The position numbers are program-made. Source: Vulcanimicrobiota bacterium (lineage in GTDB: Bacteria > Vulcanimicrobiota > Vulcanimicrobiia > Vulcanimicrobiales > Vulcanimicrobiaceae). From it: DNA of 64,000 nucleotides. The stretch covers positions 320,001-384,000 of the forward strand of contig CAWGBN010000008.1 in assembly GCA_963820825.1 (NCBI GenBank), read 5' to 3'. Positions 1 to 54,000 of the stretch are shown here, in pieces. Position 1 is the first letter of the stretch. Each line of letters starts with the position of its first letter.

Positions 1-3000
1 CCGGCGCGCACGTCGGTGATGAATTTCCAGTTCGGCGAGACGACGTTCTTCCAATCCGGGCCGTAACGGATGTGGCGCACCGCCTGGTAGCTCGACCACT
101 GCGCGCCGTCGCCGCTCGCCCGGCTGCCGTACCAGCTGGCATAGAACCGCCATGAAAGCTTCGATTTGTCGAGCTCGTCACCGAGCGTCGTATAGTCGTA
201 GCACGGTTTGATCCGCGGGCCGTCCGGGTCGCGCGTTTTGGTGATCGTGGCGACGAGATCGTCCTTTCCGTTTCCGCAGCCCCACTCGTGGGTCGGCAGA
301 TTGACGCTCCATGCCGCCTGCGCGGCGATGATGTACTGATGCGCGGCGTAGCTCTCGTCGATCTGCGATTGAAACATCCGGTCTGCCAGCACCCATTCGC
401 GTGCCATGTCGAAGTACGGCTTCGACTCGCGATGCGGCACGTAAACGTACTCCGGGTTCGGAGGCCCGAAGATCGATTTCTCTTTATCGAAGCCGTCCAT
501 CGCGCAATCGGTGCCGGGTAGCTTACCCGTTCCGTTGCACGCCGCAAACATGGCCTGCGCCGAGTGATCGATCTCATACCATTTCGTCAGGCTGACCGGC
601 TTGAGACGAATCGTTTCGCCTAAGGAGTTCTTTCCCTTGGAGACGGTATCGGCTCCCGGATAGCCCTGGAAGAGATTATCGAAGCTGCGGTTCTCTTGGA
701 CGATGAAGATCACGTGCTCGATCTTCCCCGCACCGGTCGCCTTGAGCGCACGCAGTGCCGCGCCGTGCTGCATGTAGGGCAGCGAGCCTTGCCCACACCC
801 CGTCAACGCCAGCGCGAGCGCGGCGCTACTCGTAATCCGGCGCAAAGTAATCGTTGGGAAGCGAGCGCATGAAGAACTTCGGCGGATACGGCGCCGCGAT
901 CTTCACGAACGGCCGCGGTTGCTGGTTGAAGTCGAAGCAATCGTCGGCGGGTGAGGCCGCGCGCCGGTCGGCGGCGTGGAGCTGCTTGAGGCCGAAGAGG
1001 TTCTCGGCGAAACGCAGGACGCTCGCCGTCTCGTACTGTTTGTGCGAGACGTAGTCTCTCTTGGCATAGGGTGAGATCACGAGCAGCGGGATGCGGAAAC
1101 CGAGCCCGTCGTAATCTTTATACGGCGGCGGAACGTGATCGTAGAGCCCGCCCCAATCGTCCCAGAGCACGAAGATCGCGGTCGATTTCCAAAACTTGCT
1201 CTGGCCCAGGGTATTGACCAGCGCCGCAACCCATGACGGCCCGTACCCGCCGCTGCAGTTGACGTGGTCGGAATCGTCACAGACCGGCGTGATCCAGGTG
1301 AAGGCGGCGAGCTTTCCGGCACGCACGTCGGTGATGAACTTCCAGTTCGGCGAGATGACGTCTCTCTTCCAATCGGGACCGTAATAGATGTGCTTCACGG
1401 CCTGATAGGCCGACCATTCGCCGCCGTCGCCCTGCGAACGATTCCCGTAGGAACCGGCGTAGAATCGCCACGGAAGATGCGCATCGTCAAGCTCGTCGCC
1501 GAGTGTCTCATAGTTGAAGCACGGCGGTTCCTTGGCTCCGTACTGGCGATTCTTGGTGATCGTTGCAACCGTCTCTTGCGAGCCGCCCTCGCAACCCCAC
1601 GCCAAGCCGAACGGCACGTTCACGGCGGATGCCGCTTGCGCGGCGATAACGTACTGATGCGCCACGAAGCTTTCGTCGAGCTGCGATTGAAACGTGCGAT
1701 CGCTCAGCACCCACTCGTGCGCCATGTCGAAATACGGCTTCGTATCCACATGCGGGACGTAGACGTACATCGGATAGCGGTTGCCGTGCGGCCCGCCGCT
1801 GTGCCCCTCCTGGTCGAAGCCGTCCATCCGGCACTTCGTCCCTGGCAGCGTTCCAGTACCGTTGCAGTCGGCGAACATCGCGGCGGACGAATGATCGAGG
1901 ACGTATTGTTCGGAGAGCGGGACCGGCTGGAGCGGCACGCGGTTTCCATGGGAGTCTTTGCCGCTCGAGACGGTGTCCGCGTGCGGATAGCCCTGAAAGA
2001 GATCGTCGAAACTGCGATTCTCTTGCACGATGAAGACGACGTGCTCGATCTTCCCGGCACCCGTCGCGCCGAGCGCACGTATCACCGCACCGTGCCGCAT
2101 GTACGGCAACACGGTGTCACCGTGGGCGCTAGAACAGCCCACCAGAGCAACGGCGAAAATCCAGAACGGTATCCGGTTCATCGGTCCGGTACTCTTGGGC
2201 GAGGGCCAATGGGACCCTTGCATCTAACCGGCGAAAATATCGGTCCTTCGGACCCGGCAGAAGGGAGGCCGCTATGGTGATTCCTTTCGCTGTTGCTCGC
2301 GGCATTTACGTTCGCGGCGATCCCGCTCGACGAGACCGGCAACCAAGGCAACGCCATCGTCCGCGGCACCGTGCGCGACAATGTGCGGCAACGAAACGTC
2401 GGCGGCGCGGCGGTATACGCAATCTCGAACGTCGACGTTCAAGCGACGCCGAGCGATCAGAAACCGTGTGGGTGATGAACGCCTGCCATTGACCGTCGCC
2501 CCATGAGAGCAATTGAAAAAGGGCCCTCAAAGGGCCCTTCCAGGGAGGTGACTCGGCCGCTTAATCGCCGGCCTTTTCAACCTCGAAGGTATAATAGCCG
2601 TCGGGACGCTTCCCGCTTTCCGGAAGGTCCGAGGCGATCTCGCGGCTGCTTATGCCCTGGGCTAGTTCCCTGTTGCTCTCTGCGAACCGCTGTCGGAGGA
2701 GTTCCTCGATGCTCATTCTTGAACCCATTATAGCCATCCAGTGCTAGGAACACAACTAACGCTGCTACGGTTACCCAAAGCAGCCACTTAAATGATCGGC
2801 TTTTGCTCGCAACCAGGTCATCATTGTAGTGTATCGCGTTTATCTTCTCGAGAATGACGCTATCTCTGACGCGTTTAGGATTACGAATATAATCACCCGC
2901 GAAGCGTGCGGCCCTTGGGGCGCGCCTATACGGTCTTAGGCTCAGAGAAATTAACGTAAGCACGGTAAGGACCGTAAACGCTAATGCCCCCGCGAAACCG

Positions 3001-51000: not shown

Positions 51001-54000
51001 TGATGCGCGGTGAAGCTCCCGCTCCCTTGCGTCTGGAACATGTGATCGGCGAGCACGTACGTTTTCGCGATCTCCCAGTAGGGCGCGATCTGCGACGGAT
51101 CGACGTACTGATAGGTCTCGAGTCCGGCCGGTCCCGGACACGGCTTTCCGCCGCCCTCGAGATTGAAGCCGTCCATCTTGCCGTTATCGTACTCTTTGAG
51201 AAAACCCGCGCGCGAATGGCCGAAATCGCACTTCTCGTTGAGCGGCGCCGAATGCAGGTAGACGTAGGTGTAGCCGCTCGGCGTCTTTATTCGTCCCCGC
51301 GTCGTGCCGTCGGCTTTTGGAAACGTCGCGAAGAGATTATCGAAGGTGCGGTTCTCTTGAACGACGATGATGACGTGCTGCAAGACGTCGGACCCGCCGC
51401 TCGATGCGGGCGGGATGGCGTTGCTTCCCGCACTCGTCGCGTTACGCACCGGACCGGCGCACGAAACGCCGGCCACCAGAGCGATCGAACCGATAAGGGC
51501 GCGCGCGAGCGCGCGCCGGCGACTCGTCACCGCTGCCGCAAGTCGATGGCGCCCGTCGTGGTCTCGAGCCGAATCCGCCCGCCGCCGTTTCCGATCGTAC
51601 CGCCGCCACGCGCGCCGACGAGGTGTTCGCGCTCCTGCGTCACGCCGGGAACGTTGCTGGCAAAATCGCCGACCGTGCTAAATGCCTGCACCGCCGCGTT
51701 GCTCCCGGGCGCGATCGTCAGCGTGACCGCGCCGGTCGTCGCGCGCAGGGCGATCGATCGATTTGCGTTGACGCTGCCCGCGTCGGCGGTAATCTCGCCG
51801 GCCTGGGTCTCCACGTCGAGATTTCCGCGCACGCCGGCAAGGTCGATGGCGCCGGCATCGTTGGTGATGCGCAGCGAGGCGCCCTCGGGCACGGAGATCT
51901 TATAGCGGACCCCGCCGCCGTGCACGCCGCCTGAGTACCGTGTTTTGACCGAGACCCCGTCGATCTCGCGGCGGACGTCGATCGTTACGCCGCGCAGTTC
52001 CTCGGGGTCGTGGCCGTATTTCGTTGCCTGGACGTCCACGATCGGCTTCGGCCAGCCCTCGACCCGGACGGCGCCGGCGACGTTCTCGATTTCGACCGCG
52101 GGCGAGGCACCGGCGGCGATGCTCTGGTGCACCTGCTCCCGAACCCGCTCTCCGAGGTTTCCACTGCACCCGCCGAGCGCCGGGAGGATGCAAAAGGCGG
52201 TCGCGATTCCTCGAGCGAAGGCCTTGAGGGCCATAGTCGCGGTCACTCCGCGTCTACGGACGGTATCCCCTGCCTTGCCAACCGTCAAAATGCTGCTGCA
52301 CGGAAGGACCGAGACCAGAACGATGGCCATACAGCCGGCACGGGTCCTTTTTATCGCCTCCTTCCCCCCACGGGAATGGGGCGTCGCGACCTTCACGCAG
52401 GACCTGGTGACGAACTATGCGGCCCTGAGCGGCGCTCGCGTCGACGTCATCCCGGTTTCGAACCCCGATTTCCGCGAGACGATCGCTTACCGGATCGTCG
52501 GTAATATCGCGGCAGCGCATCCGCAATCGTATTACGAAGCGGCCGCACGCGCGAATCGCGATCCGTACGAGGTCGTAAACATCCAGCACGAATACCGCTC
52601 CTTCGGGGGCGACACTGGCGAATGGTGCATCGGCTTCATGCGCGCACTCCGCAAGCCCGTCGTGCTCTCGCTCCACTCCGTCGTGCCGAATCCCAGCCCG
52701 AAGCATGCGACGATCGTGCGCGCCCTCTGCAACGCGGCCGCGAAAATCGTCGTGCTCGGCCGCGGCCCGCGCAAGCATTTGATCGCCAACTACGGCATCG
52801 ATCCGCTGAAGATCAAGGTAATTCTCGACGATCTTCCCGATATGCAAGCAGGCCTTCGCATCGCGCGGACGCACGCCGTCCTTTTTAAAGCCGTCCGCAG
52901 TTGGAACGTGGTACGCTCGCTCCCGCTCATGACGCCGGTCAGCCTCCCGACCTGCGCCGTCTAGGGCGTAGAACAACCTCTTCGGGGGGCGAGACGAAGC
53001 AGCGGCGCGGTCGCCGTGACGCGCGATGGAACTCGTCCCGCGTCGCGCCGCTGCTTCGTTGACTTACAACTGTCGGCGCTTGAGCAGACGCCGTGCCGGG
53101 ATGCCGTTGCGTCCAAAGGCGTCAATCCCGTGCGGTACCACCGGCATCGCATTGAGCTCGCGAGCAAGCGCGCCGGTGGCCGACGTCTTGCTGGTCAGAA
53201 CCCACGCCGCGTTATAGTTAAGCTGGTACCAAGGGCCGCCCCAGGCACCGAGGCTCTCCCACGCATTGCCATTTGAGTACATCGTATCCTGAAGCACCTC
53301 CACCATGCACACAGTGGTGTTGGTTGAATCGAGATAGTAGTCCATCGCGTTCGTCTCGTATATGCCCAAGATTGGGTCGAGATCCCAGTATGCTTCCTTC
53401 ACATCCGTGGCCTCTTCCCCGGAAAGCGTACCGCACGCCGACGGCATCGTCACCGTTCCGGCAACCGTATAATTGTCGACGTACGCGGGGTCGGGCAGCG
53501 CACCGCCTCCTGGATACCAGTCGGGCACCTGGGTCCTCCCGGTCGGGAAGGGCAATGGCGCCGTCCCCGAGGCCGTTACCGGGATATGCTCGTTTTTCAC
53601 CGCAGCGAACTTCCACGTTTCGGGGTTGACCCCGAGCCCCGGTAGGGAAAGCACGTACGTCGCCGGCTTGCCGAACGCGAAGTCGTACTGCTCGGCGTAG
53701 CCGCCATAGCTGCCGTAGTTCGCGAGCTGGTCCTGGCCAATGTACGAGCCGTCCGCGCCGTTGGTGCTACTGCCGTTGGCGCTGTATCCACCCGATCCGG
53801 TCTGCTTCTCAGAGTAGCTGGCGATACTTGCGGCCGCGCCACTCCAGGAGGAACCACTCGTCGCCGGATAGACGAATGCCGTCGCCCCTTGCGGATAAGT
53901 GGTCAAAGCGCTGTACTTAAACGTGCCGCTGGTTTCGGCAATCTTGGAAGAATAGTCAACCTGCGTGATAGACGACCCCGATGCGACGAAACCAAAGAGG

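Follow-up and report, generated by a model that had tools for sequence, protein, structure and literature searches.

The window, a 64,000-nucleotide stretch of contig C8 whose first position is contig position 320,001, comes from an uncultured soil bacterium with a small genome (2.98 Mb; assembly 85% complete). Pfam placed the phosphoesterase domain PF04185 in 23 of the 52 ORFs scanned, at 53-197 bits where the cut-off is 23; 21 of these are whole, one is cut by the window edge and one is split by a frameshift (Table 1). The copies in the window are 441-471 aa long. Many of them stand head-to-tail in two arrays, one of seven genes on the minus strand (15462-24838) and one of eight on the plus strand (32341-41824), the last of which is the split gene; both of its pieces match one and the same gene of the congener G097. 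According to their coordinates, neighbouring stops and starts in these arrays overlap by 4-11 nt, as the initial annotation had described. The copy at 8731..10092 has a 1:1 orthologue in G097 (73% identical, reciprocal best hit). With four further copies to the left of the window, the region C8:314-372 kb holds 27; the cluster thus stands, with a count somewhat below the "about 30" first proposed.

Table 1. PF04185 genes and selected neighbours, in window positions
Position	Strand	Feature	Evidence
1..845	-	PF04185 lipoprotein gene, N-terminal 281 aa; the C8:319673 copy, continuing left of the window	Pfam 2.6e-14, profile positions 1-197 (whole gene 1-355); lipobox LALTGC
826..2223	-	PF04185 lipoprotein gene, 465-aa ORF, "LPYM" clade	Pfam 1.4e-49; lipobox VALVGC
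4353..5933	-	M28 peptidase with PA domain	Pfam M28 5.7e-23, PA 2.5e-11; lipobox LTAC
8731..10092	+	PF04185 gene, 453 aa	Pfam 7.8e-58; atypical lipobox LLEGC
12604..14019	+	PF04185 lipoprotein gene, 471 aa	Pfam 4e-52 (longer ORF); lipobox VAVTAC
14027..15442	+	PF04185 lipoprotein gene, 471 aa	Pfam 6.5e-48; lipobox LALSGC
15462..16799	-	PF04185 lipoprotein gene, 445 aa, last in seven-gene array	Pfam 3e-45; lipobox
16792..18141	-	PF04185 lipoprotein gene, 449 aa, 8-nt overlap with next gene	Pfam 3.7e-49
18134..19501	-	PF04185 lipoprotein gene, 455 aa	Pfam 5.2e-51 (longer ORF)
19494..20837	-	PF04185 lipoprotein gene, 447 aa, modelled copy (P0001)	Pfam 7.9e-52; AF2; Foldseek
20830..22167	-	PF04185 lipoprotein gene, 445 aa	Pfam 6e-48
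22164..23489	-	PF04185 lipoprotein gene, 441 aa	Pfam 2e-46
23486..24838	-	PF04185 lipoprotein gene, 450 aa, first in seven-gene array	Pfam 8.2e-50
25038-26234, 26247-27449	+	Two tandem sedolisin (S53, kumamolisin)-like lipoprotein genes	Weak Peptidase_S8 match; lipoboxes
27503..28846	-	PF04185 lipoprotein gene, 447 aa	Pfam 8.3e-47
28913-30142, ~31190-32336 (within longer ORF)	+	Two further sedolisin-like lipoprotein genes	Lipoboxes
32341..33693	+	PF04185 lipoprotein gene, 450 aa, first in eight-gene array, "ASPIKHVV" clade	Pfam 7.5e-53 (longer ORF)
33686..35050	+	PF04185 lipoprotein gene, 454 aa	Pfam 4.7e-52
35043..36419	+	PF04185 lipoprotein gene, 458 aa	Pfam 3.4e-52
36420..37796	+	PF04185 lipoprotein gene, 458 aa	Pfam 2.9e-49
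37789..39141	+	PF04185 lipoprotein gene, 450 aa	Pfam 6.3e-54
39131..40483	+	PF04185 lipoprotein gene, ~449 aa	Pfam 5.9e-50
40371..41824	+	Frameshift-split PF04185 gene: N-terminal piece 40371-40892, C-terminal piece ending at 41824	Pfam on profile positions 97-355 only; lipobox LAAC (N-terminal piece)
42535..45859	-	Three genes, 322-392 aa, propeller-like paralog families	No family above threshold; lipobox in 2/3
45860..47254	-	PF04185 lipoprotein gene, 464 aa	Pfam 1.3e-54
48727..50127	-	PF04185 lipoprotein gene, 466 aa	Pfam 6.1e-56 (longer ORF)
50133..51530	-	PF04185 lipoprotein gene, 465 aa, twin-arginine-like n-region (SRRRALARA)	Pfam 3.3e-55

Across the genome, a six-frame Pfam search gave 83 first-look candidates that resolved into 78 PF04185 segments, 67 of them spanning the whole profile. 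The other 11 are pieces: three genes are split in two, one lacks its N-terminal part, and four matches are partial or weak. The total is therefore about 75 genes, close to the 76 claimed earlier. By crude ORF clustering this is the first-ranking paralog family, with 66 members, followed by one of 27. Pairwise identity among the copies is 23-77% (median 40%), practically the 23-78% (median 39%) given before. The highest PF04185 count outside the phylum was 16 among sampled genomes, which are not a full survey, and the idea that the expansion is the largest in prokaryotes is unproven.

Other genes lie among the copies. For the stretch that holds the M28 peptidase gene, the syntenic region of G097 has no equivalent. 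The sequence 31101-32336 matches kumamolisin-As (E 8e-10) with the E..D and GTS motifs kept, and Peptidase_S8 at 1.7e-10; the tandem pair at 25038-26234 and 26247-27449 are its paralogues. Four neighbours are thus sedolisin-like, as had been claimed; all four carry a lipobox by sequence, and a single G097 gene is the best match for all of them. The beta-propeller label fared less well: the three genes at 42535..45859, which belong to propeller-like paralog families (one of five members), had no Pfam match or one to NHL at E 0.002 only, 42535-43599 had no match in a PDB sequence search, and the label goes back to weak NHL, SGL and lactonase matches. A type III polyketide synthase gene and a sulfotransferase gene also lie between PF04185 copies.

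Might the copies be active enzymes? The PLC/AcpA phosphoesterases belong to the alkaline-phosphatase superfamily and act through a metal ion and a serine nucleophile. First, the motif QENR[ST], described earlier in a looser form, is present in all 67 full-length copies, as is the His of the S-D-H motif; the nucleophile column holds Ser in 65 and Thr in one, and the W-D-D motif is conserved in 67, 67 and 66 copies, respectively. Second, the family profile and AcpA can be aligned over their full length (E 4.2e-49), the conserved columns mapping to E43/N44, S175, H350 and D386/D387 in the numbering of the printed alignment. Third, with an AF2 model of one array copy (P0001; pLDDT 86.5, pTM 0.87), the top 11 Foldseek matches were all family members, including AcpA, GPE ethanolaminephosphodiesterase, fungal NPC, PlcN, PlcH and plant NPC4 (E 2e-22 to 7e-20, TM 0.62-0.70). 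Because the copies score far under the cut-offs of the NCBIfam AcpA and PC-PLC models, they make up a subfamily of their own, with a length of about 450 residues. The ~75 genes probably encode catalytically competent members of the PLC/AcpA family, and activity may be expected of them.

A substrate other than phosphate esters, such as sulfate esters or phosphonates, or a role as variable surface proteins with little catalysis, seems very improbable to us. The superfamily fold is common to sulfatases and phosphonate monoester hydrolases, and the motif flanking the nucleophile (16 residues) differs from the GPSTPG of AcpA. However, sulfatases come later in the Foldseek list, only at about 1e-5, a match weaker by 17 orders of magnitude. 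The copies do not have the nucleophile context of sulfatases, and the ligands of the phosphoesterase family are all kept in 66-67 of the 67; purifying selection over whole genes, described below, also speaks against this reading.

The copies had been described as mostly lipoproteins, and this agrees with our recount. A loose rule (a lipobox and a hydrophobic stretch, with a start codon lying 11-45 residues upstream) was passed by 64 of the 78 segments and 60 of the 67 full-length copies, and the alignment places a cysteine in the lipobox column of 62 of the latter. A variable tether of 16-45 residues, often rich in Gly, Ser, Ala or Pro, follows this cysteine. Two more cysteines, conserved in 66/67 and 64/67 copies, fit with an extracytoplasmic life. 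Nearly every copy would thus be made with a Sec-type lipoprotein signal, cut by signal peptidase II (LspA, one gene in the genome) and anchored on the membrane by its lipidated cysteine, so that membrane tethering, lipidation and location are all predicted from sequence. The presence of an outer membrane is indicated by seven paralogues of TonB-dependent receptors, and passages of PMC9758169 and PMC6664022 describe one in the phylum; the enzymes would then face the periplasm or the cell surface. LolA was not found in a search of this 85%-complete genome. Should they remain attached to the inner membrane, their substrates would be limited to solutes that cross the outer membrane.

Another possibility is that they are mainly phospholipases C feeding on foreign membrane lipids or necromass, so that diacylglycerol and fatty acids would supply carbon and energy and phosphate would be a by-product. 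Several solved structural relatives are phospholipases C, and the genome encodes seven acyl-CoA dehydrogenase paralogues as well as many further hydrolases that are lipoproteins (sedolisins, M28 and S9 peptidases). A parallel exists in the lipid-dependent yeast Malassezia, where PF04185 is described as the most expanded gene family, with extensive turnover (PMC4634964). We nevertheless regard lipid feeding as unlikely: the acid-phosphatase model outscored the PC-PLC model in all seven window copies scanned, the copies are missing the C-terminal portion found in bacterial PLCs of 650-750 aa, and intact membranes would be out of reach of enzymes anchored in the periplasm.

How did so many copies arise? 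The syntenic interval holds 27 copies here versus 6 in G097, with flanking housekeeping genes 65-84% identical. Reciprocal best hits exist for 25 of the 67 full-length copies in G097 and for 8 in G113, and clades of 9, 9, 8 and 6 members (support 0.86-1.0) are found in G113 only. In database searches an array copy reached at best 79% identity, versus 93% for the conserved non-lipoprotein copy. The trait had been assigned to the genus, and copy numbers are indeed high there (43-85 first-look candidates in 15 other genomes, one of which, G083 with 85, exceeds the 83 of this genome), but it is not confined to it, as 32, 42 and 56 candidates were counted in three further genera of the family. The expansion is recurrent and lineage-specific rather than a single genus-level event, and another genus expanded independently. 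The family probably grew through rounds of tandem duplication within operon-like arrays, the copies then diverging under purifying selection; several lineages across the family of genera did so independently of one another, and growth went on after the species split from its congeners. Purifying selection on the closest pairs is supported by dN/dS values of 0.12-0.29 in all 13 pairs tested.

Fast lineage-specific turnover is also seen in arms-race families, and PlcH and PlcN are among the relatives; surface phospholipases might accordingly harm the membranes of competing bacteria or fungi, copy diversity tracking the lipid head groups of the targets. We hold such antagonism to be distinctly improbable, since the dN/dS values give no sign of diversifying selection at the whole-gene level, the enzymes would be tethered to the producing cell, and among the window ORFs beside the arrays Pfam revealed neither a secretion or delivery system nor immunity genes. 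Remodelling of the cell's own membrane, in which periplasm-facing enzymes remove the phosphate head groups of its phospholipids when starved of phosphate, in the manner of plant NPC4/5, has in its favour the structural kinship with NPC4 and the polyketide synthase and sulfotransferase genes between copies. It is scarcely credible, however, as one or a few enzymes would suffice for it, in contrast to 50-80 diverged copies arising independently in several genera, and genes for lipid synthesis show no consistent linkage to the arrays.

We consider the scavenging of phosphate esters by diversified, tethered enzymes, with uptake via PstSCAB, to be the best explanation, at a probability of roughly 0.6. 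The enzymes would cleave many organic phosphate esters, both monoesters and diesters (glycerophosphodiesters, phospholipid head groups), and the phosphate freed would be taken up through PstSCAB. Activity, substrate breadth and nutritional role are all presumed here. PLC-type cleavage releases a phospho-head group, not phosphate, so an extra monoesterase step would be needed. PhoA, PhoD and PhoX were found in none of 21 genus genomes, 15 of them at least 90% complete, in a search confined to these three (PAP2, histidine acid phosphatases, phytases, 5'-nucleotidases and GDPD lay outside it). With these usual alkaline phosphatases missing, the PF04185 family is probably the route to phosphorus from organic matter. 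However, PhoD is also absent from all 44 genomes searched across the family of genera, including genera with 1-3 PF04185 candidates, so its absence alone does not explain the expansion, and the missing PhoA, PhoD and PhoX give no account of why the rich lineages need 50-80 copies. A box-like element upstream of pstS precedes no PF04185 gene, and the sequences upstream of the family show no enriched k-mer. The initial annotation's membrane-anchored battery of diversified phosphoesterases is upheld by residues, selection, fold and signals, and its phosphate mining in part and indirectly, by the missing PhoA, PhoD and PhoX and by a pst linkage. One PF04185 cluster immediately follows pstSCAB, with the same orientation, in this genome and in G109, where the gap is 42 bp, but not in G097 (two of three genomes). 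This pst-linked cluster comprises 4-5 genes and lies outside the window.

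How large is the phosphoesterase family of this Cybelea genome (G000), and how is it laid out? In the 2.98-Mb assembly of nine contigs, a six-frame search gave 83 first-look candidates (unverified PF04185 matches before full scoring), which resolved into 78 PF04185 matches, all above the Pfam cut-off. The whole profile is covered by 67 of these, and the remaining 11 pieces come from three split pairs, one N-terminally truncated gene and four matches that are partial or weak. We therefore count about 75 PF04185 genes, close to the 76 of the initial annotation, or ~2.5% of the genes and, by our own arithmetic, roughly 3.5% of the DNA. 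On our own crude gene call (2411 ORFs covering 82% of the DNA), an all-against-all BLAST made the PF04185 component, with 66 members, the largest paralogue family of the genome, followed by families of 27, 15 and 11. Within the window, the domain was found in 23 of the 52 ORFs scanned with Pfam, at 53.6-196.8 bits against a cut-off of 23. Four more copies lie to the left of the window, which makes 27 between 314 and 372 kb of contig C8; the dense cluster described in the initial annotation thus stands, but its size of "about 30" has to be lowered. The head-to-tail arrays with overlapping stops and starts were also recovered: two lie in the window, both with overlaps of 4-11 nt, and base composition is even across the array region. 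In databases, close relatives are named 'alkaline phosphatase family protein [Candidatus Cybelea sp.]' (NCBI) or 'phospholipase C' (JGI).

Table. Locations of the PF04185 groups and of other features discussed in the text. Locations without a contig name count from window position 1; the others are contig positions in the genome under study.
Feature	Location	Strand
Head-to-tail array of seven PF04185 genes	15462-24838	-
Head-to-tail array of eight PF04185 genes, the last frameshift-split	32341-41824	+
Smaller PF04185 groups	1-2223, 12604-15442, 48727-51530	
Modelled PF04185 copy	19494-20837	-
Sedolisin/kumamolisin-like lipoprotein genes	25038-32336	+
Polyketide synthase and sulfotransferase genes	10095-12607	+
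AbiU2 and DUF4268 protein genes, right of the arrays	54891-59208	-
PF04185 copies with an ordinary signal peptide	C3:111844, C6:564908	
Long ORFs with a PF04185-like half-domain	C7:317871-318638, C8:503797-504549	
LspA gene	C8:302697-303113	
pstSCAB and the PF04185 gene behind it	C5:187491-192394	
Element upstream of pstS	C5:192512-192529	
Operon-like row with a PstS-like protein	C8:445884-453776	
Propeller-like paralogue family	C2:133571-138511 and 26 other places	
HTH-STAND-TPR paralogue (example)	C1:39294-41897	

QENR is retained in all 67 full-length copies, which agrees with the [QE]EN[RHK][ST] motif reported earlier for 69 of 76 genes. The His of S-D-H is likewise present in 67/67, the nucleophile column holds Ser in 65 and Thr in one, and the W-D-D positions are conserved in 67, 67 and 66 copies. 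Two additional Cys occur in 66 and 64 of the 67, and one marked difference is that a fair share of the copies have Pro, Asn, Asp or Ala where 'WDDxGGxxDH' has its His. In the acid phosphatase AcpA, we take E43, N44, S175, H350, D386 and D387 to be the metal/phosphate ligands and the nucleophile. A profile of 58 family sequences (A1) aligned nearly full-length with AcpA (PDB 2d1g) at E 4.2e-49, and our catalytic columns map to these residues (numbering read from that alignment). An AF2 model of one array copy (pLDDT 86.5, pTM 0.87) gave as its best 11 Foldseek chains AcpA, glycerophosphoethanolamine ethanolaminephosphodiesterase, a fungal non-specific PLC, PlcN, PlcH and plant NPC4, all members of the PF04185 family (E 2e-22 to 7e-20, TM 0.62-0.70), with sulfatases next in the list at E about 1e-5. 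The seven copies scanned against NCBIfam all scored 120.9-147 bits with TIGR03397 (acid_phos_Burk, cut-off 362.75) and 103-128.4 bits with TIGR03396 (PC_PLC, cut-off 580.25), and the genes encode 441-471 aa, not the ~700 aa with C-terminal domains of PC_PLC. Because all seven fall far below both cut-offs, we place the copies, on their profile scores, in a separate PF04185 subfamily that is somewhat closer to AcpA. When 1.84 billion 50%-identity representatives were searched, 937 clusters came up at E <= 1e-30 and 9497 at E <= 1e-3; among 5.8 billion clusters, the nearest non-self match to an array copy has 79% identity. Two further ORFs of 718-821 aa carry a weak C-terminal PF04185-like half-domain (40-42 bits, profile positions 90-355); long forms resembling them were also seen in Acidobacteriota.

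AcpA has a broad substrate range, PlcH/PlcN-type phospholipases C are Tat-exported, and NPC4 has a part in lipid remodelling under phosphate starvation. The AcpA of Francisella tularensis, with the Burkholderia type of TIGR03397, is the best profile match and the top Foldseek match (TM 0.68); it shares a single domain of 450-500 aa and the same metal-ligand and Ser-nucleophile columns, but it is only ~20% identical, its motif after the nucleophile differs, and the AcpA type has one copy per genome where tens with a lipoprotein signal and tether are found here. PlcH and PlcN (PDB 9gye, 9gy2; TIGR03396) and mycobacterial PlcA-D belong to the same Pfam family and have the same catalytic core (Foldseek E about 1e-21 to 1e-20); PlcH and PlcN differ in being chains of 643-686 residues with added C-terminal parts, and, in contrast to their Tat export, twin-arginine n-regions are rare among our copies. 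The glycerophosphoethanolamine ethanolaminephosphodiesterase of Streptomyces sanglieri (PDB 8yk5), second-best in both the profile and the Foldseek comparison, is a 664-residue chain of ~20% identity and, judging by the title of its entry, no lipoprotein; it shows that the substrates of the family include small soluble phosphodiesters, compounds that could get to a periplasmic enzyme. NPC4 (PDB 8hav/8haw) and fungal RePLC (8k3g) have the same fold (TM 0.63-0.70), but are eukaryotic, soluble or otherwise anchored, and 18-20% identical.

By a loose rule of our own, 60 of the 67 full-length copies have a lipoprotein signal, and 62 have a Cys in the lipobox column, which bears out the lipobox previously reported for 55 of 76 genes; a variable tether of 16-45 residues leads from this Cys to the start of the domain. 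Two copies, on C3 and C6, have an ordinary signal peptide and no lipobox; they reach the top Pfam scores of the family in this genome, and the one on C6 has a database relative at 93% identity. The genome encodes one LspA and seven paralogous TonB-dependent receptors; LolA was not found in it, at a completeness of 85% as against 95-99% in its kin. Because of these receptors, and of passages in two papers that describe an outer membrane for the cultured relative Vulcanimicrobium and for WPS-2 genomes (PMC9758169, PMC6664022), we infer that an outer membrane is present. The PF04185 enzymes are predicted lipoproteins that would face either the periplasm or the outside. Their neighbours in the window are predicted lipoproteins as well, namely four sedolisin-like peptidases, two of three propeller-like proteins, a 449-aa protein and an M28 peptidase. 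Across the genome, the loose rule marks ~299 of the 2411 ORFs as lipoprotein-like, 53 of them with PF04185, a rough figure that is probably an overestimate.

Pairwise identity among the copies is 23-77% with a median of 40%, practically the values given before (23-78%, 39%). Variation and indels alike are densest in the tether and, by the numbering of the modelled copy, in residues 71-110, 121-135, 181-220 and 241-250. For the 13 closest pairs we obtained dN/dS ratios of 0.12-0.29 at dS 0.7-1.3, ratios that are rough because dS is near saturation. Two other accounts of the copy number were rejected: pseudogene decay on the intact motifs and the low dN/dS, and recent amplification or assembly duplication on a top inter-copy identity of 77-79% together with the dS values. 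Judged by these comparisons, there is no young pair and no sign of decay. The few split genes, pstSCAB included, are more likely to be assembly indels than real pseudogenes; the coding sequences of pstSCAB and of the PF04185 gene that follows are scattered over several frames, which probably reflects indel errors of the assembly and not loss of the phosphate transporter.

Was the family amplified once, or repeatedly? First-look candidates number 43-85 in 15 other genomes of the genus, 56, 42 and 32 in three other genera of the same family and 1-19 in its remaining genera; counts in the phylum's other families run from 0 to 15, with the class-mate family f3 reaching 15 and the rest at 0-6. Full scoring gave 60 PF04185 matches in a closed 2.48-Mb congener (G097) and 55 in a genome of another genus (G113). 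We built a tree of 162 full-length copies, comprising 67 of the 78 segments of G000, 46 of the 60 matches of G097 and 49 of the 55 of G113, with matches shorter than 990 nt and the weak ones at the bottom of the score table left out. First, clades restricted to G113 have 9, 9, 8 and 6 members (support 0.86-1.0), and two restricted to G000 have 10 (support 0.41) and 6 (support 0.84). Second, reciprocal best hits link only 25 of the 67 G000 copies to G097 (median identity 68%) and 8 to G113, and the best overall match is a paralogue from the same genome for 40/67, 26/46 and 44/49 copies of G000, G097 and G113, respectively; a single G097 gene is what almost every 'ASPIKHVV' clade member of G000 matches best, and one or two G097 genes do the same for the 'LPYM' clade. 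Third, the housekeeping genes that flank the locus are 65-84% identical between G000 and G097, and the interval from Sua5 to DUF4097 holds 6 PF04185 genes and one sedolisin-like gene in 16 kb of G097, as against 21 and four in 43 kb of G000; an extra 13-kb stretch of G000 with 6 PF04185 genes and the M28 peptidase has a counterpart of 2.3 kb. The tree, reciprocal-hit and synteny results therefore indicate that amplification has been recurrent, local and lineage-specific, and not a single event at the root of the genus. The earlier description as a genus-level trait is supported by the counts within the genus, but the three other rich genera and the repeated gains speak against confining it there. 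The four sedolisin/kumamolisin-like genes stand in tandem between the two arrays, and sedolisin-like genes have been co-amplified with the phosphoesterase arrays.

Outside the phylum, the highest first-look counts were 16 among 301 genomes of Acidobacteriota, 11 among 151 of Burkholderiales (range 1-11), 12 in Actinomycetota (among the 34 of 301 genomes listed), 15 in one Dictyobacter genome, the only Chloroflexota sampled, and 13 in one Streptomyces genome; no sampled group nears 43-85. Judged from these groups, the claim of the largest PF04185 expansion in prokaryotes is unproven.

What might such a battery do? We considered phosphate acquisition on three grounds. First, a search of 21 genomes of the genus, 15 with a completeness of 90% or more, found no PhoD, PhoA or PhoX; a limit to this ground is that PhoD is likewise missing from all 44 other genomes in the family of genera, including ones with few PF04185 copies. 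Second, G000 and a further genome (G109) share the order thrS, pstS-C-A-B, a PF04185 gene on the same strand and further copies, with only 42 bp between pstB and the PF04185 gene in G109; the linkage is absent from G097, and so holds in two of three genomes examined. Third, the relatives recovered by Foldseek include phosphate-releasing and phosphodiester-cleaving enzymes. Upstream of pstS, three genomes (G000; L202, L203) share a conserved direct repeat, CTTAAY-N5-6-GTTAAT, a candidate Pho-type box of this lineage; it is unique in G000, a scan of which gave one strict and three loose matches, none before a PF04185 gene. Nor was any k-mer (k = 6-8) enriched upstream of PF04185 genes when 36 such regions were compared with 1146 others (smallest p 2e-3 in more than 2600 tests). 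A look-up for window positions 15001-25000 listed neither sequencing runs nor RNA matches. Weighing the absence of PhoA/D/X, the pst linkage and the activities of the relatives against their limits, we put at roughly 60% the probability that the copies are tethered, active phosphoesterases whose main role would be to free phosphate from a variety of organic esters. The remainder is divided among lipid feeding, antagonism, self-remodelling and other substrates. Feeding on lipids is kept alive by the lipid-dependent yeast Malassezia, the sole other large PF04185 expansion that our literature search found, in which this family is, according to sections of PMC4634964, the most expanded one, with gains and losses among species; the parallel differs in that Malassezia is a eukaryote whose enzymes are secreted and linked to lipid dependence on skin. 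Elsewhere on C8, an operon-like row encodes a 1079-aa TonB-dependent receptor (CarboxypepD_reg), two family-less proteins, a 496-aa PstS-like protein (PBP_like_2) and a DUF4397 protein, with a PAS histidine kinase close by; phosphate compounds may cross the outer membrane by way of this system.

Phosphate release from organic esters, if this is what the enzymes do, would matter for surveys. The usual markers of phosphorus cycling in soil are the genes phoD, phoX and phoA, and the organic-P turnover of a widespread soil group would then be missed by current surveys. A wider proposal, which we advance tentatively and with the odds somewhat against it, is that Baltobacteraceae-like Eremiobacterota, a soil family, have given up PhoA, PhoD and PhoX and acquire phosphorus through a fast-evolving birth-and-death battery of lipid-tethered, AcpA-like phosphoesterases, with paralogues tuned to different organic esters; in two genera at the least, and perhaps four, the battery would have grown to 40-85 copies, each time independently. 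Were it true, it would describe a phosphatase system invisible to phoD/phoX/phoA surveys and a natural library of enzymes that have diversified in substrate on a shared scaffold. As an example of adaptive gene amplification the independent expansions are clean, each genome provides ~70 natural variants of a single catalytic scaffold on which the evolution of substrate range can be studied, and the family opens a concrete, testable way into how an uncultured genus lives.

Both the enzyme family and its chemistry have been described before. What appears to be new is the lipoprotein subfamily, its scale (~2.5% of all genes), the amplification that it underwent independently in several genera and the coincidence with missing classical alkaline phosphatases. 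A search that left aside the supplements of the phylum's genome papers found no account of these features and no literature joining Eremiobacterota with 'phospholipase C' or with Cybelea, in line with the initial annotation, which knew of no paper on phospholipases in this phylum. The portions examined of Eremiobacterota papers that mention 'phosphatase' draw no link between the two terms, titles and abstracts of the PF04185 literature report no bacterial expansion, and neither phosphatase nor phospholipase occurs in the main text of PMC9758169 and PMC6664022.

Several other loci were observed alongside the arrays and elsewhere. Between PF04185 genes of the window lies a type III polyketide synthase gene (chalcone/stilbene synthase C-terminal domain, 1.7e-18) directly followed by a sulfotransferase gene; G097 has retained both (81% and 79% identical), and the product of the pair could be a sulfated phenolic lipid. 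The second-largest paralogue family, with 27 members of ~340 aa, gives weak beta-propeller matches, and one propeller-like member adjoins a 1318-aa TonB-dependent receptor, which recalls the receptor and lipoprotein pairs of polysaccharide-utilisation loci. Fifteen paralogues of ~860 aa combine an HTH domain, a STAND NTPase and TPR repeats. To the right of the arrays, a 665-aa HEPN AbiU2 protein (1.1e-8) is encoded near a DUF4268 protein, and the two may form a small defence locus.
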